Positions 5,865 through 22,869 of a DNA stretch of 24,010 nt are shown here, one piece after another (position 1 is the stretch's first letter; every line of letters starts with the position of its first letter). Below the pieces are notes generated by a model, which saw only the letters and a list, made by a program, of their open reading frames with translations, was not told the origin of the DNA and made no database searches. This DNA is from a virus (taxonomy: Duplodnaviria; Heunggongvirae; Uroviricota; Caudoviricetes). The stretch is from the IMG/VR virus record IMGVR_UViG_2684622581_000006; one strand, written 5' to 3'. The position numbers were made by a program, and so were the translations under genes.

Positions 5865-6328
5865 CAGATAAGCTCCACTGTGCAGTGCGGCGCGTCCTGT
5901 ACCCGGCTGATGGCCCAGCGGGCGTCACGCCACAAATCACCGCTGGCTTCTGCCAGTTCCTCGCCCCGCTTCACACCGGATGCCGTGGTGTCATAGTCCT
6001 GGTATCGTTCGTTGAGCATGGCGCGTGCCCAACAGTAAACCGCGTTGAAATAGTGCTGAATGCGCTCACTTTTGCCGTCCAGCTGTTCCGCCGGAACCTC
6101 TGCCAGCGAGGCATACCCCAGCACCTGCTGGCGCCTGCGAAACTCATACAGCTCTGCGTTGACCTCCGAAATTGCCGACAGCGCAACCTGCTTTAAACGC
6201 GGCTGCGTCACCGTGCCGTCAGTGCGCATCACACTGCGAAACTCCGACAGGTCCACATCAGGCCAGAACGGCGTATTTCTGATGATTTCCGCCTGTTCCG
6301 GTGCCTGTTCTGGCGCAACAAACTTCAT
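5864..6328 (-). CDS. L: Head completion/stabilisation protein L
   Basis: ORF 5864-6391; internal start MKFVAPEQ (about 6328) is preceded by AGGAGAAA about 7 nt upstream. Position after M as in P2. Confidence 0.75.
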   Translation of the reverse strand: MKFVAPEQAPEQAEIIRNTPFWPDVDLSEFRSVMRTDGTVTQPRLKQVALSAISEVNAELYEFRRRQQVLGYASLAEVPAEQLDGKSERIQHYFNAVYCWARAMLNERYQDYDTTASGVKRGEELAEASGDLWRDARWAISRVQDAPHCTVELI

Positions 6329-6423
6329 GCTGCTTTCTCCTGAAATAGAGGGCGGTGGACGGGATTTTGATGTGGCAGTGCCTTTCGCCACCCCGTGCCG
6401 CCCGTGCGCGGGGGCACGTTCTG

Positions 6424-7074
6424 TCAGCGGCTGTCATTGCGCAGTCTGCGCTCCAGCTGCTGTTTGTCTTTTTTCACGCCACAGCGGGGATCGAGCTGTA
6501 ACGCATGGTTGAGATGATTAAGGGCGGACGCCGGATTGCTTTCACTCAGGACCGCGCCAATCGCTTTATGCAGACGTGCCCGTGACTGGTCCGGCATATC
6601 CAGACCGTCTGTCAGCTCCAGCGTCTGCAGCAACAGATCGGCATCAAAGCCGGTGGCGGCAAGCATTGCGCTCTGGGCTGCGTCTGCCATTTCCTCTGCC
6701 AGCACGGTCTGCACGTTGCGGTTACCCAGCGGCATCACCCAGCCATGACGCAGGGCATGACGCCCGATCTCCAGCGCCCCGGCATAATCTCCGGCATCAA
6801 TGCGCCACAGCATCACGTACATCAGCACGTCATCCTGTTGCGCGCCTCCGGCAGCCAGGACACCCTCCGCCCAGGCGGCGTACTTCGGCAGCAGCTCCAC
6901 CTTGATTTCCGCTTTTTTGACCGTGGACTGAACGCCCTTGAGACGGCGGCGGTCTTCCGCCAGTTGCAGCAGCATCAGGTCATAGCCCGACGCGTGGCGA
7001 ACACTGCCGCCCTCGCGGGCGGCCTGTTCAGCCTGAACGCGCAGGCGATGCTGCCGTGCGGGACTCAGGCTCAT
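6424..7074 (-). CDS. M: Terminase endonuclease (small) subunit M
   Basis: 216-aa ORF between N and L, as P2 gpM. Confidence 0.8.
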   Translation of the reverse strand: MSLSPARQHRLRVQAEQAAREGGSVRHASGYDLMLLQLAEDRRRLKGVQSTVKKAEIKVELLPKYAAWAEGVLAAGGAQQDDVLMYVMLWRIDAGDYAGALEIGRHALRHGWVMPLGNRNVQTVLAEEMADAAQSAMLAATGFDADLLLQTLELTDGLDMPDQSRARLHKAIGAVLSESNPASALNHLNHALQLDPRCGVKKDKQQLERRLRNDSR

Positions 7075-7077
7075 GAA

Positions 7078-8136
7078 TTACGCTCCGGTTTCTGCTGCAG
7101 CGGTGCTGAAATCGCCAATCTGGATGTTTTCCACCAGTGCGGCGCAGCGGTAGTCCTCAACCACATAGGCTTCGTTAACAGATTCAAAGTTTTCAATCCG
7201 GTCACGTTTCGGGTTGTCAATAACTGAACGGCGGCGGGTGTCTTCCTGCCAGTAGATGGACAGGTTATCCAGACGGGTGATCAGCAGCGCATTCGGCGGG
7301 AAGAACGGCGCACGCACGGCCTGCAGGCCCCCCATGCGTTTCTGACTGATGATCATATCGGCAGCCAGTTTTTCACTGTTTTCCTGCTCTTTGTTGACCA
7401 GCGGGAAATACTTGTCAGACAGCAGTTCACGCCCGCAAATCACCACCAGATCGTCATCGTCCTGGTAAACCACGTCGATAAGCTCATTGACGGCATCCAT
7501 CACTACGGCGTCCAGGTTGGCATATTCGCCACCTTTCCCGACTTTCACCGCACCCGGTGTGGTTTCACCACCCGTGGTGGTGCTGCCCATGACGTGATCC
7601 GGTGCATCCTCACGGATTTTCTGCAGCCAGCCTTTATTCACATCCTGCAGCAGCGGGTTTTCGCTACGGTTGGAGGTTTTCGCACGCTTCACGCCGTTAA
7701 AGCCGATCATGATGCGGTCCAGTGCCTGACGTTTCACGATGGCGTCACGGATACGCACCTGGAAATCCTGAAACTTCGCCCACAGGTCCAGCTTCGCGTA
7801 GGTCAGTACCGTGTCAAAGTTGGTCTGCTCGCATTTGTATTCCACATCGACCATCAGCGTAGGATCGACAGGTTCACGCTCTTTCGCGGTGGTGTCAGTG
7901 GTTCCGGCAATGGTGCTACCAACACCCAACCCCAGCAGCTGACCGGACTGCTCAGTCACTGGCGTGACGTTAATCAGCGTCAGGAAAGCGGCGGACTGTT
8001 GGATCTGGTCTTCCAGCGTCTGCTGTACAGACGGCTCCACGGTGAACTTGCTGGACAGTTCTTCAACTGCCACACCGTTCAGACGCGCCAGCTGCTGCAG
8101 GTAAGCGTTAAAAGCAAAGCGGGTATTCTTCTTCAT
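7078..8136 (-). CDS. N: Major capsid protein N
   Basis: 352 aa; strong recalled similarity to P2 gpN along the length (TRFAFNAYL..., KYECEQ.NFD, GFNGVKRA.TS.RS.NP.LQDV, ISQKR.G.L.AVR, DYVVEDY, GDFSTAA). Confidence 0.9.
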   Translation of the reverse strand: MKKNTRFAFNAYLQQLARLNGVAVEELSSKFTVEPSVQQTLEDQIQQSAAFLTLINVTPVTEQSGQLLGLGVGSTIAGTTDTTAKEREPVDPTLMVDVEYKCEQTNFDTVLTYAKLDLWAKFQDFQVRIRDAIVKRQALDRIMIGFNGVKRAKTSNRSENPLLQDVNKGWLQKIREDAPDHVMGSTTTGGETTPGAVKVGKGGEYANLDAVVMDAVNELIDVVYQDDDDLVVICGRELLSDKYFPLVNKEQENSEKLAADMIISQKRMGGLQAVRAPFFPPNALLITRLDNLSIYWQEDTRRRSVIDNPKRDRIENFESVNEAYVVEDYRCAALVENIQIGDFSTAAAETGA

Positions 8137-8152
8137 CAGGTTTTGTGCTCCA

Positions 8153-8986
8153 TCAGCAATTGGTCAGAGTGTCAGCGGGGGCGTTACCGCCTGTTGCACG
8201 CTGGCGGTAGTCCTGGCGGCTGTCTTCATGACTCAGCTTATTCACCAGTTCTTTAAAGGCGGTTTGCTGCTCCTGCAGAGCAGTCTCCAGCTCAGACAGG
8301 CGTTCTTCCTGTTCAGCCAGGGATTTTTCGGTGCGGGTGCTCAGGTTCTGCTGCTCAGTGGCGACCAGCTCCACGGCCTTATGCACATCAGAGAACCGGG
8401 CATCGTCTGACTGCTCTTTTTTGGTGAACAGCGCCGTGACGCGGGCAAACAGGGACGGTTTGTCATCCTGGACTTCTTCCAGTTCGATCACCGTTTCCTC
8501 TGCAGCGGTAAAAAGATTGGCGGGATTCTGCTTGCGGTTTGCCAACGGGTTATGGGCTGCACTGGCGCTGAATGTCAGCATTTCCGTACCCAGACTGGCT
8601 GGATCATCAGTGGCAGCCAGGCCAACCAGGTAGGCTTTGCCCGTATCAGCGAACTTCGGGCTGACTTCCATAGAGGTGAATAATTTCTGGCCTTTTTTCA
8701 CCAGCTCCACCAGGGACTCCGTTGGCTCAACGTCGGCATACAGCGCCATCTTGCCTGCCAGCGGGCCTTCCGTGATTTCTTCAGCAAACAGCGCCGTCAC
8801 CTTGCCGTAGCGGTTAAAGGTGCTGTCCGGCAGATAAGACTTAATGTGCTCAAGGTTAATCAGCGCGGTATACACTGCGGGGTTGTAGCTGGCTGCCATC
8901 TGTTCCAGCCATTCACGCTGGATTTCGCGTCCGTCGGTGGTGGCACCTTCCACCCCGATGCGAAAACGCTTTGCTTTCACTGTCAT
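8153..8986 (-). CDS. O: Capsid scaffolding protein O
   Basis: 277 aa, first gene of the O-N-M-L operon; GGAG about 9 nt upstream of the start; acidic coiled-coil C-terminal half typical of scaffolds. Confidence 0.85.
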   Translation of the reverse strand: MTVKAKRFRIGVEGATTDGREIQREWLEQMAASYNPAVYTALINLEHIKSYLPDSTFNRYGKVTALFAEEITEGPLAGKMALYADVEPTESLVELVKKGQKLFTSMEVSPKFADTGKAYLVGLAATDDPASLGTEMLTFSASAAHNPLANRKQNPANLFTAAEETVIELEEVQDDKPSLFARVTALFTKKEQSDDARFSDVHKAVELVATEQQNLSTRTEKSLAEQEERLSELETALQEQQTAFKELVNKLSHEDSRQDYRQRATGGNAPADTLTNC

Positions 8987-9128: not shown

Positions 9129-10895
9129 ATGAACACCACACTGACACCCGCAGATCTCGATCCCCGTCGGCAGGCCATGCTGCTGTACTTTCAGGGATAC
9201 CGCGTAGCCCGCATTGCTGAAATGCTGGGCGAGAAAGTTGCAACCGTTCACAGCTGGAAAAAACGCGACAAGTGGGGTGACTATGGGCCGCTGGATCAGA
9301 TGCAGCTCACCACCGCCGCACGCTACTGCCAGCTCATCATGAAGGAGCACAAAGAAGGGAAAGATTTCAAAGAGATTGACCTGCTGGCGCGCCAGTCTGA
9401 GCGCCACGCGCGGATCGGCAAGTTTAACAATGGCGGCAACGAAGCCGACTTAAACCCTAACGTCGCCAACCGCAACAAAGGCCCGCGCCGTCAGCCGGAA
9501 AAAAATGTCTTCACCGATGAACAGATTGAGAAGCTGGAAGAAATCTTCCATTCCTCCATGTTCAACTACCAGCGCCACTGGTGGGAAGCCGGAAAAACCA
9601 ACCGCATCCGCAACCTGCTGAAGTCACGCCAGATCGGCGCGACCTTTTACTTTGCCCGTGAAGCCCTGATTGACGCCCTGCTTACCGGGCGTAACCAGAT
9701 TTTCCTTTCCGCCAGTAAGGCACAGGCCCACGTCTTTAAGCAGTACATCATCGACTTCGCCAAAGAAGTGGAGGTGGAGCTGAAAGGCGATCCGATGGTG
9801 CTTCCTAACGGGGCCACGCTTTACTTCCTCGGCACCAATGCCCGCACTGCCCAGAGTTATCACGGCAACCTGTATCTGGATGAATATTTCTGGATACCGA
9901 AATTCCAGGAGCTGCGCAAAGTGGCTTCCGGTATGGCTATTCACAAGAAATGGCGACAAACCTATTTTTCCACGCCATCCAGCCTGACTCATAGTGCTTA
10001 TCCGTTCTGGTCCGGTGCGCTGTTCAACCGTGGGCGCAACAAAGCCGACAAGGTGGACATCGACCTGTCCCACAGCAATCTGGCCCCCGGCCTGCTGTGC
10101 GCAGACGGGCAATACCGCCAGATAGTCACCGTGGAAGATGCGGTGCGCGGCGGCTGTAACCTGTTCGACCTTGACCAGTTGCGCATGGAGTACAGCCCGG
10201 ACGAATACCAGAACCTGCTGATGTGCGAGTTTGTGGACGATCTCGCGTCCGTGTTCCCGCTCAGCGAGCTGCAGGCGTGCATGGTGGACAGCTGGGAAGT
10301 CTGGACCGACTTTCATGCACTGGCTCTGCGCCCGTTTGGCTGGCGCGAAGTGTGGATCGGTTATGACCCGGCAAAAGGTACGCAAAACGGCGACAGCGCC
10401 GGATGCGTGGTGGTGGCACCGCCAGCCGTGCCTGGTGGTAAGTTCCGCATTCTTGAGCGTCACCAGTGGCGCGGGATGGACTTCCGCGCCCAGGCTGACG
10501 CCATCAAAAAACTGACCGAGCAGTACAACGTGACCTACATCGGCATCGACTCGACCGGCGTCGGCCACGGGGTTTACGAGAACGTGAAAGCATTCTTTCC
10601 TGCCGTCCGGGAGTTTGTCTACAACCCCAACGTTAAAAACGCCCTGGTGCTCAAGGCCTACGACATTATCAGCCACCGCCGTCTGGAGTTTGACGCCGGA
10701 CACACCGACATTGCGCAGTCATTCATGGCAATCCGTCGCGCCACCACCGCCAGCGGCAACCGCCCGACCTATGAAGCCAGCCGCAGCGAAGAAGCCAGCC
10801 ATGCCGATCTGGCCTGGGCAACAATGCACGCACTGTTTAACGAACCGCTGCAAGGCGAGTCCGCCAATACCAGCAATATTGTGGAGATTTTTTGA
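9129..10895 (+). CDS. P: Terminase ATPase (large) subunit P
   Basis: 588 aa (P2 gpP is about 590); transcribed divergently from O and followed by Q with a 4-nt overlap, exactly as in P2. Confidence 0.9.
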   Translation: MNTTLTPADLDPRRQAMLLYFQGYRVARIAEMLGEKVATVHSWKKRDKWGDYGPLDQMQLTTAARYCQLIMKEHKEGKDFKEIDLLARQSERHARIGKFNNGGNEADLNPNVANRNKGPRRQPEKNVFTDEQIEKLEEIFHSSMFNYQRHWWEAGKTNRIRNLLKSRQIGATFYFAREALIDALLTGRNQIFLSASKAQAHVFKQYIIDFAKEVEVELKGDPMVLPNGATLYFLGTNARTAQSYHGNLYLDEYFWIPKFQELRKVASGMAIHKKWRQTYFSTPSSLTHSAYPFWSGALFNRGRNKADKVDIDLSHSNLAPGLLCADGQYRQIVTVEDAVRGGCNLFDLDQLRMEYSPDEYQNLLMCEFVDDLASVFPLSELQACMVDSWEVWTDFHALALRPFGWREVWIGYDPAKGTQNGDSAGCVVVAPPAVPGGKFRILERHQWRGMDFRAQADAIKKLTEQYNVTYIGIDSTGVGHGVYENVKAFFPAVREFVYNPNVKNALVLKAYDIISHRRLEFDAGHTDIAQSFMAIRRATTASGNRPTYEASRSEEASHADLAWATMHALFNEPLQGESANTSNIVEIF

Positions 10896-11920
10896 TGGGA
10901 AAGAGTAAGAAGAACCGCGCTGCGGCGACGAAACAGATCCAGCTTAAAAGTCAAACTACAGCCGAAGCATTCAGCTTCGGCGATCCCGTTCCTGTTCTGG
11001 ACCGCCGAGAACTGCTGGACTATGTGGAATGCGTACAGACAGATCGCTGGTATGAGCCGCCAGTAAGCTTTGACGGACTGGCGCGCACCTTCCGCGCCGC
11101 CGTGCATCACAGTTCACCAATTGCGGTGAAATGCAACATTCTGACCAGTACCTACATCCCTCACCCGCTGCTCAGCCAGCAGGCTTTTTCACGTTTTGTG
11201 CAGGACTATCTGGTATTTGGTAACGCCTACCTGGAGAAACGCACGAACCGCTTCGGTGAAGTTATCGCCCTTGAGCCTGCTCTGGCAAAATACACCCGAC
11301 GCGGGTTAGACCTGGATACCTACTGGTTTGTGCAATACGGTATGACAACCCAGCCGTATCAGTTCACGAAAGGCAGCATTTTTCATCTGATGGAACCGGA
11401 CATTAACCAGGAGATCTACGGCCTGCCCGGCTATCTTTCTGCCATTCCGTCCGCCCTGCTCAATGAGTCCGCCACGCTGTTCCGCCGCAAGTATTACATT
11501 AACGGTAGTCATGCAGGCTTCATCATGTACATGACCGATGCTGCGCAGAACCAGGAGGACGTGAACAACCTCCGCAATGCAATGAAAAGTGCCAAAGGTC
11601 CGGGTAACTTCCGCAACCTGTTTATGTACTCGCCTAACGGCAAAAAGGACGGGCTTCAGATTATCCCGTTGTCAGAGGTGGCGGCGAAGGATGAGTTTTT
11701 GAATATCAAGAACGTGAGCCGCGATGACATGATGGCTGCGCACCGCGTGCCGCCGCAAATGATGGGGATTATGCCTAATAATGTTGGAGGGTTTGGGGAT
11801 GTGGAGAAGGCCGCAAATGTGTTTGTGCGCAATGAACTTTTGCCATTACAGAAACGCATGGAGGAGTTAAACCATTGGCTGGGTGAGAAAGTTATTGCAT
11901 TTTCATCCTATTGTTTATGA
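10892..11920 (+). CDS. Q: Portal (capsid vertex) protein Q
   Basis: 342 aa (P2 gpQ is about 344); last gene before the cos region in P2-family genomes. Confidence 0.9.
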   Translation: MMGKSKKNRAAATKQIQLKSQTTAEAFSFGDPVPVLDRRELLDYVECVQTDRWYEPPVSFDGLARTFRAAVHHSSPIAVKCNILTSTYIPHPLLSQQAFSRFVQDYLVFGNAYLEKRTNRFGEVIALEPALAKYTRRGLDLDTYWFVQYGMTTQPYQFTKGSIFHLMEPDINQEIYGLPGYLSAIPSALLNESATLFRRKYYINGSHAGFIMYMTDAAQNQEDVNNLRNAMKSAKGPGNFRNLFMYSPNGKKDGLQIIPLSEVAAKDEFLNIKNVSRDDMMAAHRVPPQMMGIMPNNVGGFGDVEKAANVFVRNELLPLQKRMEELNHWLGEKVIAFSSYCL

Positions 11921-11930
11921 GATATAAATT

Positions 11931-11954
11931 GGTGGCCTTAATTATATAGCCACC
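11931..11954. terminator. Hairpin between convergent genes Q and the TIR gene (possible bidirectional terminator)
   Basis: GGTGGC-cttaattatata-GCCACC followed by ATATTGCTTTTTATTTT on the plus strand; the complementary strand also has a T-rich tract after the stem. Stem is short (6-7 bp). Confidence 0.4.
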
Positions 11955-11964
11955 ATATTGCTTT

Positions 11965-12777
11965 TTATTTTACTCTAAAGGCATCATCGGCTTTATGTGG
12001 TATAGGAGCATAACGCTCGGTACTTACTCGATGTAGCACCGCAAATATATTCAAAGGTGAACCATCCTTTAACCTAAGAGAAACATACATTGGCATCGTT
12101 GGTGTTAACCCCCGATTTAGGCCAACAGTGGCACCACTTACTTTCATACCATTTTCTAAAGATGCATTTTCAATAAACCCCTGAGTGAATGTGCTTTCTC
12201 CATTGACCATAACAACAACATCATCATGCTTAATTGTATTATCCATAATCATCATAAAATCAGCAATTGGTTCTAAAAAATCCATTGCTGATAATTTCAC
12301 TATCTTACCCCCATCACCATCCTTAATATCATAGGAGAGGTTTGAATACTTCTCAGGATTAGGAATATACGTATTTTGTTGATTAATGACATCTATAATT
12401 TGTCTTATTGCCACATCGATCCCATACGAATAAAGATCAATATATAGCGTTTGAGTAAGCAGAGCAGGCAAGGATATATTCTGGCAACGTATTGGTATAA
12501 ATTTACACTTCCCGGACGATGCCTTAATTAAAGCATTTTGCCATTCCATTTTTACCATGTTACTTGCCAAACTATTTTCTGTGACAAAAAAGAAAAAGAA
12601 CGATACATTCTCCATTCCTAAATTCATCTTGTCAATAATACCCTCTCCGGGTTGGATAGACCAAGAATCGTAGAATACGTTATCACGCCCATAAACATCT
12701 GCTAGTTTTTCCGCTATAACACTTACAAACCTTTTGTCACGGTGATTATGACTTAGAAAGATCATAGCATGCCCCAT
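11965..12777 (-). CDS. TIR-domain protein with about 135-aa C-terminal domain of unknown function (cargo; candidate anti-phage protein)
   Basis: N-terminus IFLSHNHRDKRF...FYDSWSIQPGEGI...FFFFFVTENSLASNMVKMEWQNA has the bacterial TIR hallmarks (F-x-S-H start, aromatic run, W-x-x-E helix with a candidate catalytic Glu near residue 78). Strongly AT-rich compared with flanking phage genes. Start could be M1 (12777) or M5 (12765). Confidence 0.75.
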   Translation of the reverse strand: MGHAMIFLSHNHRDKRFVSVIAEKLADVYGRDNVFYDSWSIQPGEGIIDKMNLGMENVSFFFFFVTENSLASNMVKMEWQNALIKASSGKCKFIPIRCQNISLPALLTQTLYIDLYSYGIDVAIRQIIDVINQQNTYIPNPEKYSNLSYDIKDGDGGKIVKLSAMDFLEPIADFMMIMDNTIKHDDVVVMVNGESTFTQGFIENASLENGMKVSGATVGLNRGLTPTMPMYVSLRLKDGSPLNIFAVLHRVSTERYAPIPHKADDAFRVK

Positions 12778-12846
12778 TAGAAATTAATGTGTAAGATCTG
12801 CGTAGAGAGTCACCGACAGTGTACCAATAATAATCTTCTGCGCGCA

Positions 12847-12865
12847 ATCGTATCCCCGCCACGCC
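12847..12865. other. Candidate cos (cohesive end) site, P2/186-type
   Basis: Reverse complement reads GGCGTGGCGGGGATACGAT, matching about 15/19 of the recalled 19-nt cohesive end of phage 186 (GGCGTGGCGGGGAAAGCAT) and P2 (GGCGAGGCGGGGAAAGCAC). It sits in a GC-richer non-coding stretch (12780-13065) on the expected side of Q. From memory only; coordinates +/- 2 bp. Confidence 0.4.
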
Positions 12866-13065
12866 TGCCCACTTTATGTAGTGGTTTTCATGCACCTGCA
12901 TGACATAAGCAAAAGCACGCCAGTTCTGGCTGGCATCAGCGAAAACGATCGTCATACTATCATGCGATCTCATGCGCCATATGAAGTTTTCCTGACACAG
13001 CCTTGGGTTGGGATAACACCTAACTCAGGAAGATTTTTTGTGTGTTTGTAACCCACACCTAGAGT

Positions 13066-14235
13066 TTACCAATCCATGTTTGCGGCATTATCCATCTCAC
13101 GAGTTAAGTAATTAACAAATAAGTCCATATTCCTTTCTGATTTCATCGCCTCCGCATAGGTTCCATTAGTTACGTAAGATAGTATTAAAGGACATCCAGA
13201 TTCAATATAAATTTTTGCTGGGGACAGTTCTCCCTGCCACAAATTTTCAAGAAAATCGTTAATTAATTGCATTGCTTCAGGTGCCAAAAAATGCACACCA
13301 TTTCCAAACTTGAAACGTTCTTTATTTTCTCGATGAGGCAGCAATAGTGGCACAGCCCCTACACTTGAGTGAAATTCCAATGCTTGCCCATCCTTACCGA
13401 AGGCGCCATGGGCTACAAAATTACGCACCTGTTTTCTGAGTATAAGTAAACGATCATAGAACAATTTTAGACTGGAAGAGTTAATATCAATGGCTAATTT
13501 GAATTTCTCCCCCCATTCTTTTCCAACTTTATCAGCCACATCATTCCCATTTTTTATCTCACCCTTCAAGATTGCAATAAGAATGAAAACATGCTCGGTC
13601 CAATTGAAAAATGACTCAATTGCAGACGTTGCTAACCACATAGCCTCTCTTCGGAGTTCAATTATCTTATTTGATTGTTCAAAAGTGGATTGTAACAGGC
13701 TGAAAAAATTATCAGACTTAAACTCACTATCAACTTCCAGTTTAGACTCTTGGCCAGCAGCAACTTCATCAAGCTTCTGTTTATATAGCTCTAAAAAATA
13801 GCAAAACCTATCATAAAGAGAATTAGCATTGTTATTAACATTTAGATTTGAAGTCTTTGCTGCATTGTCTGCAAGCGAGTCAAAAAAATTCGTAGCAGCT
13901 TTAACCCCTGCGCAAATATGTCTCAAAACAATTTTAGCTTGCTCTATATCATCATCACTCTTGATAAATATATCTAAACCAAGTTTACGATGTTCTATAA
14001 TTACGACAGTCCCATCAATCCGGACTGGGATAGAAAAAGAAATCTTCTCATCAACCCCACGATTTTTAAATTTCAGTAAATCTACCAAAAGAAAATAAAC
14101 GAGATAATACGGAGGTAATGAGTCTCCCAAACCCGAGCGCTTACCCCAAAAATATTCATCAAGCTCGGCAGACTCCATTGTCCCTATGACTCTTCGGACG
14201 CGTTCTTCAACTTTAGCCAGATCCATTCCCCACAC
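13066..14235 (-). CDS. Hypothetical 389-aa protein with HEPN-type R-N-x-x-A-H-G motif (cargo; candidate nuclease effector)
   Basis: Long AT-rich ORF between A and cos at the position where P2 carries old/tin. Contains LRKQVRNFVAHGAF (R271..H276), a canonical Rx4H HEPN signature. No further family recognised by eye. Confidence 0.6.
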   Translation of the reverse strand: MWGMDLAKVEERVRRVIGTMESAELDEYFWGKRSGLGDSLPPYYLVYFLLVDLLKFKNRGVDEKISFSIPVRIDGTVVIIEHRKLGLDIFIKSDDDIEQAKIVLRHICAGVKAATNFFDSLADNAAKTSNLNVNNNANSLYDRFCYFLELYKQKLDEVAAGQESKLEVDSEFKSDNFFSLLQSTFEQSNKIIELRREAMWLATSAIESFFNWTEHVFILIAILKGEIKNGNDVADKVGKEWGEKFKLAIDINSSSLKLFYDRLLILRKQVRNFVAHGAFGKDGQALEFHSSVGAVPLLLPHRENKERFKFGNGVHFLAPEAMQLINDFLENLWQGELSPAKIYIESGCPLILSYVTNGTYAEAMKSERNMDLFVNYLTREMDNAANMDW

Positions 14236-14396
14236 CGCCTTTCAATATCACTTAAGGTATTACAGCCAATGACATCGATTAAATACAGCGTAGATAATAG
14301 GCAACTTGCTACTGTTTTCAAGGGCTTTCTGTTTCAATCCTTAGTTGACCTTGCTGACGCGAGAATCTAGTTCTCACGCCAGCAACGCCCCTGCTG

Positions 14397-14585
14397 CTAA
14401 CCGAGAAGATCCATTACACGGTTATATTCATGGGCACGAATTTTCGCCATCAACTCATCAGTCAGCTCTGAAACCCACTGCAGAGCCAGCCCCTTCTCTT
14501 CATCACTACACTCACTAGCCGCTACAAGCTTAAGAAAAAAATCAATGCGCTGGAGCTTCAAAGACTCCAAAAAATAGTCCTGCAT
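14397..14585 (-). CDS. Small acidic hypothetical protein (about 62 aa)
   Basis: ORF 14397-14687; internal start MQDYFLESL is preceded by an AGGAGG Shine-Dalgarno about 5 nt upstream. Lies between the A stop and the 389-aa gene. Confidence 0.45.
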   Translation of the reverse strand: MQDYFLESLKLQRIDFFLKLVAASECSDEEKGLALQWVSELTDELMAKIRAHEYNRVMDLLG

Positions 14586-14738
14586 TTTTCCTCCTATGAC
14601 ACCACAAGCAATACTGTATGCATAACCACTGTTTATATTTACAGTATATAATAATCTTACTGATGTAAAACGTTTTTTTACGTTCATCAGCCTGATATGC
14701 CTGGTATTATTAAGAGCACGAATTGTTAATCCGCGTAA

Positions 14739-17153
14739 TTAATACAGGTTCCGCCACTTATCATCTTCCCACAAACGCTGGTTCCGATAGAAGATACGCA
14801 AGCCTGCTCCTGACGGAATACTGCCGCCGCGAAGGAGTAAATCGACCTCTTTCTCGCTGCCATCAAATCCTCTGGACTTCAGCTCATAGACGAGCTGCAG
14901 TCGCTGATGGTCTGTAATTCGCTGTTTGTAGTCTTTACGCCGTTTCGGTTTAACCAGGCGTAACCTTGCTGCCAGTTCCCGGCGCTCTTTTTTGCTCATA
15001 CTGTGCAGGTAATCGTGCAACTCCTTGTCATCCATGCGGGTAATGTCCGTTCTGGTGTCCCCATCAGCTGATTTATCTTTCTCCTGTTGGTTCAAATTTT
15101 CAGCAAGGGGACAGTTATTGCCACGAGTCCAAGGGGCGCAAGTGCCCTGGTCGGCTGCCGCCTCCTGAACGTCAACGGCCTTACGAACCATTTTCCACTT
15201 CACTGCATGAGTGCAGATCTTGCCCTCTGCAATGGGTGACCAGATGCCATAAATACGAATACCGTGATCGCCATAGGCGGTTGGCTCTTCGTTGATTTCA
15301 TAAGCGGTTCTGATGAGGTGATATTTGCGGGGAACCAGTACGCCGCCCTGCTTCATGATGTAGGTGGCAAAACAACCAGCATCAGCAGCAGCCAGGATGG
15401 CATCAAGGCGCGGGTTATCCAGTACCGGCGCACCTGCTTTTTTGTCACCCTGTTGCCTTGCCGCCTGACCAGCCAGCAATCGCAGTTCACGGTAAGCCTG
15501 ACGCCCCGGAATGCCAAAGAAGCGGAATTGCTGAACACGATGCAGAGACGCCCAGGCATTAACGTATTCAGCGTTATCACGCAGGGATTTACCCGTTTCC
15601 TTACTGATCTCGCCAGCCAGACCACGCCCGTCAATATTCTTACTGATATATTTCGCAATGTAGCTTGTCGGCGTTCCTTTGCGCGGGTTTATCAGCTCAG
15701 ACTTAAAGCGTGGCCCCGTGTTATTGCCCAGCTCCTCGCGGTCTTCACGGATGGCAAACTTACGCAACAATGCAGTAATGGCGCGGCGCTCTTTTTTGCG
15801 CATGAAACACAACAGGTGCCAGTGAACTGTGCCGTCATGATGCGGCTCAGCCACCCGCACGCCATACCAGCGCAACCCGGCTTTGTGCATAGCCTTACGA
15901 AATGCAGCAAACATGCCGACCAGATAATCGCTGCTTTGTCTTACTGTCGCGTTGGTCCAGGTCGGGTTTGGCCTGCCGTTATTTAGCGTGGAATGGAAAC
16001 GTGACGGACAGGTGATGGTGTAGAAAACGGCGCAGTCACCACGCATTTCCGCGATAAGCTCCAGGCCTTTAACACAGGCCATCATCTCATTGCGGCGATG
16101 CGCCGGGTTGCTGCTGCTGGCGTTTACCACATCCTCCATGTTCAGCGTGTCGCCGTCTTCGTTCACCAGTTCATGAGAACGGAAAAACTCCAGCGACTTA
16201 CGGCGCTGCTCACGTTTATGCATCACGGCTTCATAGCTGACATAGGGAGATGCTTTTTTGCTGACCAGGCTGACAGCACGCAACTGCTCTTCCCGCCATT
16301 CGCAACGCATCTTCCATAATTTCCGATACCACCAGTCGGCGCACAGCATACGCGCCAGCGAACCCGGAATGAGTTCATAGGGCACAGGTTTGCGGCGGTT
16401 TCTTTTCCGGCGGAGTTGCTCAAACGCAGGCGGTATGACATCCAGTCGCAGGGTTTCTGCAGCCACCTTTTCCCATGTCTTGCGGATTTCTTCTGGCTTA
16501 ACATCATCGGAGGCGTACAAATCACCACAAGCGGCATCAAGACACATGCTCATATGCGCAGCGACAAGGGTAGACAGGCGTTTCACCTGATCCTGACTCA
16601 TTTCAGGCAGGATCAGCAGACCGTCCAGCCCTTCATGGCTTGCCATAAAACGAAAAGATGCAGATAGCTGGCTGTCGCGTACATGCTCCAGTCGTTCCAG
16701 ACATGGCTTAATCGTCTCACGCAAATAGCGGGAATAAGCCTTTGGCCTGCCCAGGCTGCTGAAATATTCAATACGTTGCATCAGCGGCTTGCTGATATGG
16801 GAAGGCTGGGCGTTGACGTCGGCCAGAATGACCATGTCCGGATTAAAACGCTGCTGCTCATGCGCCATCTTTGCCCGGCTAATGAGCTTATCCTGCTCCA
16901 TTTCGCGTTGGACAGGATCACGGGATTCATTAAAGAAATAACGCTCCCAGACCTGATCACTCAGTGCCTCGCGGCGCAGTTGTTCCTGCTCGTTATCAGT
17001 AGCGTACAGAGTGATCAGGTTTGAAAGCGCAGAAACCGGCGCAACTTCCGCCGGGTCCAGATAAGGGTTAATGGCCTTTTTCGGGCTGTTCCATGAGAAT
17101 GCTGCGGCGACCTCGTTAAAGCCGCTGCAGTTGTTCATATCAGCATGGCTCAT
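14739..17153 (-). CDS. A: Replication initiation protein A (rolling-circle nickase)
   Basis: 804 aa; HUH-like motif (TVHWHLLCF) and the YIAKYISK tyrosine motif typical of P2 gpA-family initiators; preceded by dam with overlapping stop/start. Confidence 0.9.
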
Positions 17154-18007
17154 GCACGCACTCCGTACACGGCAGAACTATCCACGCCACGCGAAGGATC
17201 AAATCCCACCCAGCAGCGCGGCCCGGAAACAGCGATGATTTCTGTTGCAGATTTACTCTCACCAGCTGCTACACCGATGCTGCGTTTTGCCTTGATGTAG
17301 TGGTGAGTAAAATTGCGATACAGCGAACGGATCAGGGATGTATCACTGTTAGAAACAATGACCGGATGTCCTTCTGATGACCGATGTTCAAGAACGGATG
17401 CCAGGTGATACTGGTCATCTTCAGTGAAACCATCAGTGTGATAGCCGGAAAACGTACCGTCATACGGCGGATCGCAATACACCACATCCCCCACCTGCAG
17501 CATCGCCAGCGTTTCATCAAAGCTTGCGCAGATAAACGTTGCACGCTGGGCTTTCTCTGCAAATGCGCGAATTTCTTTTTCAGGGAAATACGGATTTTTA
17601 TAATTACCGTACGGAATGTTGAAACGCCCGCTCTTGTTATAGCGACATAATCCACGGTAACCATGACGATTGAGATACAGGAAATATACCGCTTTCATGA
17701 AATCAGTAATTTCAGTGGAGTAATTAAACTCCTGCCTTATGTTGTAATAAGCCACCTCCCTGTTTGCGATCTCAAATAAAACTCTGCCGCGAGATATAAA
17801 CGATTCACAATCAGCGGCAACCTTTTTATAGAGGTTGATTAAATCAGGATTAATATCCGCAACCAGATAGCTGGGGTAATCCGTCTCCATCATCACAGCA
17901 CAGGAACCCGCGAAAGGTTCAACCAGTCGCGGGCCAGCAGGAAGGTGTTTTTTCAGTTCGGACATAATGGCGGTTTTATTTCCCGCCCATTTCAGGATGG
18001 TGCTCAT
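17150..18007 (-). CDS. dam: DNA adenine methyltransferase (Dam-like, N6-A)
   Basis: ORF 17150-18067, likely start at [11 protein letters not shown]; motif [11 protein letters not shown] and motif IV DPPY (VYCDPPYDG) present. Confidence 0.85.
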
Positions 18008-18231
18008 ACAGCACCTCCGTTGTAATGTTTGCCTTTCAGCTCTGCGATTTCCTGACAGGTAATGCAAAGCTGCACACCTGGAATGGCGCGGCGGCGTGCT
18101 GGCGGAATTGGCGCTTCACACTCAATGCAAAGCACGCGGGACACGCCCGGCGTTTTGGCACGGGCAGCACGGATATGGCGCTGGCGTTCTTCTTCAACGC
18201 GCTGCTGTACGAGATCCATTGCATCAGCCAT
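18004..18231 (-). CDS. TraR/DksA-family C4 zinc-finger protein
   Basis: 75 aa with C-x2-C-x17-C-x2-C (CIECEAPIPPARRRAIPGVQLCITCQ); small zinc-finger genes occur at this position in P2-like early operons. Confidence 0.65.
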   Translation of the reverse strand: MADAMDLVQQRVEEERQRHIRAARAKTPGVSRVLCIECEAPIPPARRRAIPGVQLCITCQEIAELKGKHYNGGAV

Positions 18232-20146: not shown

Positions 20147-21097
20147 ATGTCAACTCAAAAATTCACATTTCGCCATATGAATGACGATATGAAAGCCGCT
20201 GTCATACAGAATCGCGGTGGTCAGAAAGTAATTGAGCGGATCCTCATGGCTTATGGCTTCAAGTCACGCCAGGCATTCTGTAATCACCTAGGTATTTCCC
20301 AAAGCACGATGGCTAACAGATATGCCCGCGATACATTTCCAGCAGATTGGGTTGTTATCTGCTCGATGGAGACAGGCGCATCAATTGAATGGCTAGCATT
20401 TGGTTCAGGTGTTAAAGAAAGAATGTCATCTTCTTCACTAGAACAACATGCTGAAAAACAAACCGAAGATGGACTTTGCGACAAAGTTCACTCTTCCCCC
20501 ACTCTGTTCGATAATGAAATCCACATGAATTTCACTCATGGAGGAAAAGCAGTAATAGAACGAATTGTTGAAGCTTACGGTTACAAGACACGTCAAGCCT
20601 TAGCTGATCACCTTGGTATTTCAAAAAGCACGTTAGCCACACGATATATGCGTGATACTTTTCCTGCTGATTGGGTAATTCAGTGTGCTATCGAAACAGG
20701 AGTATCCATCACGTGGTTAGCCTTTGGGAAAGGAGATAAAATAGAAAAAAATAGCAGTTTAAACTGTATAAATATACCAAAGTTTACTCTAAATAATGCA
20801 AAATTAATTGAGAGCGGGAACTCGATATTTGATAAAAATCTGTTACCTGAAAATACGATATTTCCTTGTTTGATTGAAAATGTAAATAACTTTTACATTT
20901 GTGAAAAAAGATTCAATAATATTATTGATGGCGAGTGGATCGTTGGTATTGATGGAGATATCAGTATTCGAACAATCACTAAATTACCTAATGAAAAAAT
21001 TCAAGTAAAAAATAAAAACATAGTTTTTGAATGTTCAATAAACGAAATCGAATTTATTGCAAAGATCGTATTATCCATTAATAATGTTAGAGGTTAA
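20147..21097 (+). CDS. cI: CI-like immunity repressor with two tandem HTH (186 CI-type) domains and an AT-rich C-terminal domain
   Basis: 316 aa. Two homologous segments (VIERILMAYGFKSRQAFCNHLGISQSTMANRYARDTFPADWVVICSMETGASIEWLAFGSG and VIERIVEAYGYKTRQALADHLGISKSTLATRYMRDTFPADWVIQCAIETGVSITWLAFGKG) recalled as the 186 CI N-terminal HTH fold; divergent from apl-cII. Confidence 0.65.
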   Translation: MSTQKFTFRHMNDDMKAAVIQNRGGQKVIERILMAYGFKSRQAFCNHLGISQSTMANRYARDTFPADWVVICSMETGASIEWLAFGSGVKERMSSSSLEQHAEKQTEDGLCDKVHSSPTLFDNEIHMNFTHGGKAVIERIVEAYGYKTRQALADHLGISKSTLATRYMRDTFPADWVIQCAIETGVSITWLAFGKGDKIEKNSSLNCINIPKFTLNNAKLIESGNSIFDKNLLPENTIFPCLIENVNNFYICEKRFNNIIDGEWIVGIDGDISIRTITKLPNEKIQVKNKNIVFECSINEIEFIAKIVLSINNVRG

Positions 21098-21098
21098 A

Positions 21099-22253
21099 AT
21101 GACTGACAGCAATTATATCAATAATAATTCTCTTGAGGACACAATAGAGATAATCGAAGAAGAACAGAACGATTCTTACTCAAATGATGATTTATACAAT
21201 ATAAACTCATGGGGGGCCGATTTATCTTTTAGAGAACTTATTACAATGTATGATGAGGGCGAACTTCAGAAACCAGAACTTCAAAGAAATTATGTTTGGG
21301 ATAAAGTCGAAGCCAGTAGATTTATAGACTCATTATTGCTAGGTCTTCCTGTTCCGAGTATTTTTTTAGCAAATACGTCTGACGAAAACAAACTCATTAT
21401 AGATGGTTTTCAGAGAATCATGACTGTCTATGATTATGTGACAGGTATATGGTCAAAAGATAGTAGAGTCTTTAAACTTTCCGATAGTAGAAAAATTAAT
21501 GCAAAATGGCGTGGTAAGGCCTTTAATGAACTTACAGTTTCAGAAAAAAAGAAAATTCGCTCAACAACTATACACGCTATAATCTTTGAGCAAACCGTTC
21601 CGTCGAACGATGATACTAGCCTATATCAAATTTTTGAGCGTATAAATACTGGTGGACGTTCACTAATGGCTCAAGAAATACGTAATTGCGTATATCAAGG
21701 GAAATTAAATACTCTATTGATAGAACTAAACAATAATATCAAATGGCGTACTTTATTCGGTTCTAATAAACCAGATGCACGAATGAGAGATATGGAATTC
21801 ATTCTAAGAGGCTTGGCTCTTAACACGCAGAAAATAAAGAGTCATGAACCAGCAAATATTTCTCTAAAAAAACTCCTTAATGAATATATGGGTGATAAAG
21901 CAAATAACACCTCTGACATGATCGACACCATTAAAACCGATTTTGAAAACACCATTAATTTTATTCATGATAATATAGGACCAGATGCATTCTTTAATAT
22001 AATCCAATCAGATCCATCACGTATACGTCGTCGTTTTTATCCAACCATTTTTGATGCATTATATGTCGCAACATCCATTGCATTAAATTCAGGTGAAGAC
22101 ATAAACACTAACGATCTAGAGCATAAAAGAAATGAGTTACTACAAAATCAGACATTTCGGTCACATATCACATCTGGTACAATGCAGATAGAAAATATAC
22201 ATGGAAGAATTTCAATGGCACTGGAGTTTCTTTATGGCATTCAATATCGTTAA
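21099..22253 (+). CDS. DUF262 (ParB/Srx-like, GmrS-type N-terminal domain) protein (cargo; candidate defence component)
   Basis: ORF 21057-22253; start at MTDSNYINN (ATG about 21099) is preceded by GAGG and begins 1-2 nt after the cI stop. Contains LQRNYVWDK and IIDGFQRIMT, matching the DUF262 F/YQR.YVW and DGQQR signatures. Very AT-rich. Confidence 0.7.
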   Translation: MTDSNYINNNSLEDTIEIIEEEQNDSYSNDDLYNINSWGADLSFRELITMYDEGELQKPELQRNYVWDKVEASRFIDSLLLGLPVPSIFLANTSDENKLIIDGFQRIMTVYDYVTGIWSKDSRVFKLSDSRKINAKWRGKAFNELTVSEKKKIRSTTIHAIIFEQTVPSNDDTSLYQIFERINTGGRSLMAQEIRNCVYQGKLNTLLIELNNNIKWRTLFGSNKPDARMRDMEFILRGLALNTQKIKSHEPANISLKKLLNEYMGDKANNTSDMIDTIKTDFENTINFIHDNIGPDAFFNIIQSDPSRIRRRFYPTIFDALYVATSIALNSGEDINTNDLEHKRNELLQNQTFRSHITSGTMQIENIHGRISMALEFLYGIQYR

Positions 22254-22869
22254 TAATAATGCTAAAAATAGCATTATAGATTGTTTAAAGGAACTTGAGA
22301 GTATAGAGAAGATGATAGAATCTTCTGGCCCCACTACAACTATTGTTAAATATTTAACACGATATTCAATTATTAGAACCTGCGGAACCATTGAATATTC
22401 TTTCAAAACAATCATTAGCGATCATAAATATGATCAACATAGTGAACAAATACAAAGATTCATTGATGAAAAATTCAGAAATAGTTCAATGAACCCTAAT
22501 TACGATAATATTTGTAAGGCACTTGGTTCATTTGATAATAACTGGTGTAACAACTTTAAGGACAAAATCAAGAACGATCCGCACTCAAATAAATTACGTG
22601 ATTCGTTGAAATCTTTAAATAGAGCCAGAAATGATTTCGCTCATGGAAAAAGCCCCACAGTATCATTTCAATATATTTTCGACTATTTTATAGATAGTGT
22701 AGCCATTATTCAGAAGATGGAGTCATCAATACTTGATTTAGAAGCGACAAATACGAATATTGGATTAACTAAATCTAACGACCGAGATAATACATTTTCT
22801 GATTTAGTTAATAATTCACAAAGAAATATCGCTAATGACCCTGAAAATAATTTAAGAGCAGATTTATAG
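22234..22869 (+). CDS. Hypothetical protein with HEPN-type R-N-x-x-A-H-G motif (cargo; candidate nuclease partner of the DUF262 protein)
   Basis: ORF 22201-22869; start at MAFNIVNN (about 22234) is preceded by GGAG about 10 nt upstream and overlaps the DUF262 stop by about 20 nt. Contains LNRARNDFAHGKSP. AT-rich. Confidence 0.6.
   Translation: MAFNIVNNNAKNSIIDCLKELESIEKMIESSGPTTTIVKYLTRYSIIRTCGTIEYSFKTIISDHKYDQHSEQIQRFIDEKFRNSSMNPNYDNICKALGSFDNNWCNNFKDKIKNDPHSNKLRDSLKSLNRARNDFAHGKSPTVSFQYIFDYFIDSVAIIQKMESSILDLEATNTNIGLTKSNDRDNTFSDLVNNSQRNIANDPENNLRADL

Follow-up and report, generated by a model that had tools for sequence, protein, structure and literature searches.

The region next to the cohesive-end site (cos) of P2-like phages, between gpA and gpQ, is a known cargo hotspot; many of these hotspots carry more than one system, and cos-driven exchange of their contents has been proposed (Rousset et al. 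2022, PMC9122126). Validated defence genes housed in its slots include old, tin, the AC1 Toll/interleukin-1 receptor (TIR) system and DUF4238, and cargo without a defence role is found there as well, partitioning systems and the cdt toxin being examples (Rousset et al. 2022, PMC9122126). The current study concerns two genes at this position in a 24,010-nt stretch of viral DNA (IMG/VR record IMGVR_UViG_2684622581_000006; the whole stretch is called the window below). One encodes a TIR-domain protein of 266 amino acids (aa), the other a protein of 386 aa with a HEPN-like motif. They are best explained as two independent single-gene accessory modules, likely acting in superinfection exclusion or abortive infection, and not as one system (rough probability 0.72), because cos lies between the genes and each usually occurs without the other.

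Two cargo genes on opposite sides of cos

The window represents a P2-like prophage whose cos is of the 186 type. The hotspot and its borders comprise the following features.

9129-10895, plus strand: terminase P (open reading frame (ORF) list)
10892-11920, plus strand: portal Q (ORF list)
11965-12765, minus strand: TIR gene, 266 aa (270 aa from 12777); cargo to the left of cos, between cos and portal gene Q
12839-12981, no strand assigned: conserved non-coding cos region of 143 bp, separating the two cargo slots
12847-12865, minus strand: 19-nt cohesive-end sequence GGCGTGGCGGGGATACGAT, from alignment to the cos of phage 186
12917-12936, minus strand: terminator-like hairpin with a T-rich tail (consensus scan), downstream of the 386-aa gene and upstream of cos
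13066-14226, minus strand: 386-aa gene (389 aa from GTG 14235); cargo to the right of cos, in the position of P2 old/tin
14294-14321, minus strand: promoter-like site, TTGAAA, 16-nt spacer, TATTAT, 10/12 matches (consensus scan), within the 160 nt that precede the 386-aa gene
14397-14585, minus strand: conserved 62-aa P2-like backbone gene, not cargo (phrog_698 match)
14739-17153, minus strand: replication gene A (ORF list)

In an initial annotation both cargo genes fell within the A-to-cos interval. They are separated, however, by a 288-bp gap that contains a cos-like sequence. The annotated cos of phage 186 (GGCGTGGCGGGGAAAGCAT) matches the window read from nt 12865 to nt 12847 (GGCGTGGCGGGGATACGAT) at 16 of 19 bases, and the minus strand from nt 12904 to nt 12840 aligns over the junction of the right and left ends of phage 186 (55/65 identical, E 2e-17). 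The 143-bp cos element was found in 623 of 5,426 complete E. coli genomes, with no annotated feature beneath the match among the records listed, and in 84 records of P2-like phages, Fels-2 and SopEPhi among them. A P2-type cos sequence gave no match in the window, the 186-type being the one matched. An ORF of 75 aa that overlaps cos (nt 12746-12973, minus strand) has no family match in Pfam or PADLOC and was treated as spurious. The terminator-like hairpin shows no enrichment over shuffled sequences; phage 186 has an annotated terminator, t95b, ahead of its right end, to which the hairpin is loosely comparable in position.

Pairwise comparison showed that prophages bearing the TIR gene (L002 and L015) share nt 10800-12975/12981 of the window, that prophages bearing the 386-aa gene share nt 12839-15000, and that L001 and L016, whose left-slot cargo is different, have the segment nt 12839-14408 with the 386-aa gene in common with the window. 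The cos element is the sole segment of the cargo region common to all four alternative cargo arrangements. The TIR gene is thus assigned to a slot at the left end of the packaged DNA, bounded by cos and the portal gene. The slot of the 386-aa gene is bounded by A and cos and lies at the right end, the position of old/tin in P2 and of tum/orf97 in phage 186. The cos-to-portal stretch (nt 11837-12838, compared with L001:2234-3907 and L016:1256-3134) is a variable cargo slot, and divergence among the compared prophages extends into the portal gene, over its final ~20-85 bases. In the present prophage this slot is taken up by the TIR gene, in other E. coli prophages by the gene for a 557-aa DitB-like protein or by three genes of which one is STAS-like; in phage 186 it is empty. 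The cos-to-Q slot of P2 is likewise not known to carry cargo.

Like P2 old/tin and other hotspot cargo, which often amounts to more than one system, the two genes lie beside cos, are AT-rich and are swapped among similar prophages. The G+C content is 0.35-0.41 across nt 12001-14000, compared with 0.52-0.63 in the structural and replication genes. Their gpA-gpQ position, their variability among related prophages and this atypical composition support the view, taken from the outset, that both are horizontally acquired cargo of the cos-proximal hotspot. Neither gene is related to the hotspot systems old, tin, DUF4238, 3HP, DprA-PRTase or 2TM+1TM+TIR (PMC9122126), and the layout differs from that of the P2 hotspot in having cargo on both sides of cos, including the cos-to-Q slot. 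A segment identical to the TIR/386-aa region is present in E. coli S43, where RefSeq labels the products a 266-aa 'toll/interleukin-1 receptor domain-containing protein' and a 386-aa hypothetical protein. The hotspot itself and the occurrence of TIR cargo within it are already known, and the 386-aa protein (WP_032248694) is already catalogued, as 'hypothetical', in Table S5A of Rousset et al. 2022 (PMC9122126).

The 62-aa ORF at nt 14397-14585, previously suggested as a third component or regulator, proved to be a conserved backbone gene. It matches phrog_698 over its full length (E 4.1e-36), is annotated beside gene A in prophages with other cargo, and lies inside backbone ~94% identical to prophages with different cargo, this identity resuming at nt 14409.

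Co-occurrence and genomic neighbourhoods

The initial annotation had proposed the two genes as one candidate system, a Thoeris-like pair. The TIR protein would make an NAD-derived signal, and the N-terminal domain of the 386-aa protein would bind this signal and activate a HEPN RNase. In favour of this, the genes lie side by side in one orientation, both in the prophage and in the circular form, and a HEPN or HEPN-motif protein is found across cos in 8 of the 9 E. coli TIR prophages (the 386-aa protein in 3, a DUF4145 protein in 5). The DUF4145 gene is, however, divergently oriented and belongs to a RAZR/PD-T7-4-like type, PD-T7-4/RAZR being a stand-alone HEPN RNase system (PMC13017515), and the five cases count as one lineage since all share one TIR allele. 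The arrangements seen across cos from each gene, other than the one in the window, are as follows.

TIR gene: divergently oriented DUF4145 protein (PD-T7-4/RAZR-like) and DinI
TIR gene: 111-aa hypothetical protein and DinI
386-aa gene: 557-aa DitB-like protein
386-aa gene: set of three genes, one of them STAS-like
386-aa gene: a further arrangement, in Table S5A of Rousset et al. 2022 (PMC9122126)

Within the same 5,426 E. coli genomes the TIR gene is present in 9 and the 386-aa gene in 10, both occurring together in only 3, so that 7 of the 10 carriers of the 386-aa gene lack the TIR gene. The DUF4145 gene is found in 29 genomes, with the TIR gene co-present in 5 and absent from 24. The lack of linkage extends beyond E. 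coli: none of 80 TIR-family loci from different species holds a member of the 386-aa family within 5 kb. At these loci 273 of 278 clusters of flanking genes are singletons, and no conserved partner of the TIR family was found. No Pfam family recurs in more than three of 114 TIR-flanking genes, DUF4145 and HEPN families occurring in fewer than 2 of the 114; a weak DUF4145 match beside a Burkholderia TIR gene (E 0.004) did not generalise to other TIR loci. Conversely, a TIR gene accompanies the 386-aa family at 2 of 17 loci, both of them this same P2 cassette, and at 0 of the 15 others. Upstream genes of 307-321 aa, examined as possible conserved partners of the 386-aa family, are unrelated to each other.

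The TIR protein resembles ThsB in size and layout. Neither linkage to ThsA nor a conserved co-occurrence of components, as expected of Thoeris, was found. No ThsA-type partner (SIR2/SLOG, Macro, TM) is present here or at the 80 related loci, and the 386-aa protein has no match to SLOG, Macro, SIR2, CARF or SAVED. The adjacent gene lies across cos, behind the terminator-like hairpin, and is unlinked elsewhere. On these grounds a Thoeris-like pair is considered very improbable.

The settings in which each family is found by itself are varied. Lambdoid prophages carry the nearest enterobacterial relatives of the TIR protein (~50% identity) as solitary genes of their nin region, and another relative occurs in a Burkholderia integrative element. 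In the loci L113-L117, from Enterobacter and metagenomic lambdoid prophages, the TIR gene (nt 6001-6813) lies between the replication genes and ninB/ninE/ninG/Q. Temperate phages of unrelated types thus share this single-gene cargo. The nin region is an accessory-gene region of lambdoid phages. Homologues of the 386-aa protein are found directly after hsdR of a type I restriction-modification (R-M) system in Klebsiella, after hipA, near Mrr and methylase genes, near insertion sequence (IS) elements, or isolated among housekeeping genes. In the Klebsiella loci (L006-L009) a 61%-identical homologue (nt 6001-7185) starts 13 nt past hsdR and is followed by an unannotated 332/440-aa gene (nt 7368-8690). 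This layout is reminiscent of the anticodon nuclease PrrC, which lies within the prr type I R-M locus.

These settings also bear on a broader alternative, namely that one or both genes are not defence genes, or that the chemistry of the 386-aa protein is not that of HEPN enzymes. The TIR protein might then be an NADase acting as a counter-defence or virulence-type factor, and the 386-aa protein an addiction or toxin module or a nucleic-acid-processing accessory. The isolation of several 386-aa homologues among housekeeping genes, outside defence islands, is compatible with this, as are the partitioning systems and cdt toxin among P2-hotspot cargo (PMC9122126). Both slots, however, house validated defence genes (old, tin, the AC1 TIR system, DUF4238), other 386-aa homologues have genes for type I R-M, Mrr, methylases or HipA as neighbours, and the TIR relatives occupy the lambdoid nin region. 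The alternative is judged unlikely as a whole; the part of it that concerns chemistry is taken up with the 386-aa protein below.

The TIR protein

The N-terminal TIR domain proposed for the ORF at nt 11965-12777 (minus strand) was confirmed. Pfam TIR_2 matches residues 6-117 with a score of 81 bits, the curated cut-off being 28 (E 1.3e-22), and a profile built from 44 homologues matches TIR-NLR, Cat1, PdTIR and AbTIR in the PDB (E 4e-9 to 1e-6). Models in PADLOC match the TIR core only, and weakly (TIR-NLR, PDC-S66, ThsB at E 7e-4). The AlphaFold2 (AF2) model has a predicted local distance difference test score (pLDDT) of 89 and the flavodoxin-like TIR fold; at the level of sequence and predicted structure, the TIR-domain assignment is correct. 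The start at ATG 12765 (266 aa) is favoured over that at 12777 by the family alignment and by RefSeq.

The protein consists of an N-terminal TIR domain (residues ~1-127) and a conserved all-beta C-terminal domain, a beta-sandwich (~143-254). The candidate catalytic glutamate pointed out in KMEWQNA, E74 (E78 in the 270-aa numbering), belongs to a (K/L)[ML]EWQNA motif. It is invariant in 44 of 44 family members and aligns with the Glu of TIR-NLR and Cat1 in hidden Markov model (HMM) alignments. Conservation of the C-terminal domain is likewise family-wide, N142 and E165 being invariant. The family comprises 945 matches at 90% clustering and ranges over Proteobacteria, Bacteroidota, Firmicutes, Spirochaetes, Actinobacteria and candidate phyla.

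With SpbK of ICEBs1, the TIR-NLR of P4 satellites, Cat1, TIR-SAVED and TIR-STING the protein shares the TIR domain and the Glu at the catalytic position. Like the single-protein TIR defences, it is encoded by a stand-alone gene on mobile elements. The NADase activity of the present protein is putative. It differs from these systems in its partner domain, a small conserved C-terminal beta-sandwich in place of a STAND NTPase with TPR, or of CARF, SAVED or STING. The type of N-terminal domain found in SpbK is lacking, the extra domain of the present protein being C-terminal.

The 386-aa protein and the HEPN question

The ORF at nt 13066-14235 (minus strand) and its RNFVAHG motif are as originally described, although homologues and RefSeq favour the start at ATG 14226 over GTG 14235. 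The family comprises 1,041 matches at 90% clustering and 998 representatives at 50% identity. The R, N, H and G of the motif (R268-N269-x3-H273-G274) are invariant across the family; R268, N269 and H273 are so in one set of 47 members and in another of 27 whose identity falls as low as 21%. Also invariant, even at 21-25% identity, are E211, K61, K81 and K241.

In the confident AF2 model (pLDDT 88.6, predicted template modelling score 0.83), an alpha/beta domain makes up the N-terminal part (~1-125); a long hairpin of helices (134-220) follows, and the C-terminal region is again helical. RNFVAHG lies at the C-terminal end of helix 251-276, before a loop and a beta-hairpin, and the invariant E211 is in the preceding long helix 171-220, as judged by helix positions in the model. 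HEPN active sites are described as an Rx4-6H motif, with a polar residue (N/D/H) next to its Arg, at the end of helix 3 of a four-helix core whose helix 2 contributes a conserved acidic residue (PMC3710099). As far as the order of helices in the model shows, the location of RNFVAHG, its Asn and the placement of E211 agree with this.

The initial call of HEPN thus stands for the motif, of Rx4H type and invariant, and not for the fold, as no significant profile or structure match was obtained. Pfam, PADLOC, PHROG and NCBIfam gave no match to the protein. A Pfam scan of the family returned Csx1_HEPN in 1 of 47 members only (E 0.05), and a scan of 10 divergent or extended members, including one of 633 aa, returned nothing meaningful. 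The family profile found nothing among PDB sequences at E up to 10. In hhalign comparisons, a purpose-built DUF4145/RAZR-like profile was aligned with a probability of 0.1%, and the bona fide RiboL-PSP-HEPN protein of the window gave a suggestive local alignment of 39 columns over the motif helix (probability 4%, E 0.01) that is not significant. An exhaustive search of representatives returned only family members among the best 150 matches. No profile or fold search recovers HEPN, and membership of the 386-aa protein in HEPN is unproven.

This failure, together with the invariant K61, K81 and G83 of the N-terminal domain, is what speaks for a chemistry other than that of HEPN enzymes, for example a centre formed by K61/K81; the invariant signature of R-N-x3-H plus Glu speaks against it. 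An HEPN-like RNase is accordingly the favoured assignment, but it is held as a best guess and not as established, because every homology test failed despite the agreement of the motif. The invariant Lys and Gly residues of the N-terminal domain (residues 1-130, window ~13837-14226) and an almost invariant AANMDW tail are unexplained by the HEPN hypothesis.

With RAZR/PD-T7-4 (DUF4145), RiboL-PSP-HEPN, PrrC/RloC, ApeA and AbiD/F/J/V the protein shares an invariant R-[N]-x3-H motif, placed at a helix end in the model, and an invariant upstream Glu. Like the stand-alone HEPN abortive-infection RNases, it is the product of a single gene in a defence hotspot. The RNase activity of the 386-aa protein is putative. 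The N-terminal alpha/beta domain, the long coiled-coil hairpin and the invariant C-terminal NMDW tail set it apart from those enzymes. PrrC and RloC carry an ATPase domain, which the 386-aa protein does not have.

Several further observations were made on this family. Within the N-terminal domain, K61, K81 and G83 are accompanied by a nearly invariant E60 in an IEHRKFG motif. The ...AANMDW tail ends nearly the whole family (window ~13066-13080). The 633-aa member (P0340) has a 227-aa N-terminal extension, without a Pfam match, before a full region of the 386-aa type. The RNDFAHG motif of the window's RiboL-PSP-HEPN protein is closely similar to RNFVAHG.

A proposed model of two independent modules

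If the two genes are separate modules, recombination at or near cos, between phages with different cargo, would have juxtaposed them, and their adjacency would not reflect functional coupling. During infection, the C-terminal beta domain of the TIR protein may sense a phage component or drive assembly; the TIR domains would then oligomerise and hydrolyse NAD+, halting phage growth. The 386-aa protein would be a latent, HEPN-like, metal-independent RNase, inactive until infection. Single-gene modules lying side by side agree with the description by Rousset et al. 2022 (PMC9122126) of multi-system hotspots and cos-driven exchange.

Two observations weigh against this model. The consensus scan revealed no convincing sigma-70 promoter directly upstream of the TIR gene, and prophage read-through across cos is therefore possible. 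Strong conservation of the C-terminal domain of the TIR protein is, moreover, unusual for a phage sensor.

A more far-reaching version of the model is put forward tentatively, at somewhat less than even odds. According to this, the two genes are founders of two uncharacterised but widespread single-gene anti-phage families, and the P2 hotspot consists of two independently recombining slots flanking cos. One family, the TIR-plus-beta-sandwich proteins, would be spread over many phyla on integrative elements and on phages of the P2-like and lambdoid types. The second, that of the ~390-aa proteins with ~1,000 clusters at 50% identity, would have a highly divergent HEPN-like R-N-x3-H active site on a fold without a solved relative.

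Other features of the window

An ORF at nt 17150-18067 (minus strand; 305 aa from a TTG start) lies directly upstream of gene A, where related prophages carry a gene that RefSeq calls a DNA adenine methylase. This ORF is probably part of the backbone, or semi-conserved, and not hotspot cargo.

A second AT-rich cargo locus (nt 20147-22869, plus strand, G+C 0.31-0.34) is situated between the repressor and the integrase. It includes the following genes.

20147-21097, plus strand: CI-type repressor with a duplicated helix-turn-helix domain
~21057-22253, plus strand: GmrSD_N/DUF262 protein (Pfam E 2.5e-26), overlapping the RiboL-PSP-HEPN gene
22201-22869, plus strand: 222-aa RiboL-PSP-HEPN protein (Pfam E 2.4e-19)

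An arrangement of DUF262, methylase and HEPN_RiboL-PSP is given in Table S5A of Rousset et al. 2022 (PMC9122126). A RiboL-PSP search of viral contigs yielded 2 loci only, one of which has a stop codon inside the matched stretch.

Implications for P2-like phages

What the current study adds is modest: two large unannotated families are presented as single-gene candidates, and the layout of two slots around cos is made explicit. The analysis removes the false lead of a Thoeris variant composed of TIR and HEPN proteins. That two genes adjoin within a phage hotspot says little for their forming a system, here because the packaging site itself lies between them. Both families are good candidates for single-gene defence and can be tested separately. 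If the reading of two slots is true, packaged phage DNA would have one defence gene at each of its physical ends, and two slots flanking cos fit the proposal that recombination at cos drives the shuffling of cargo.

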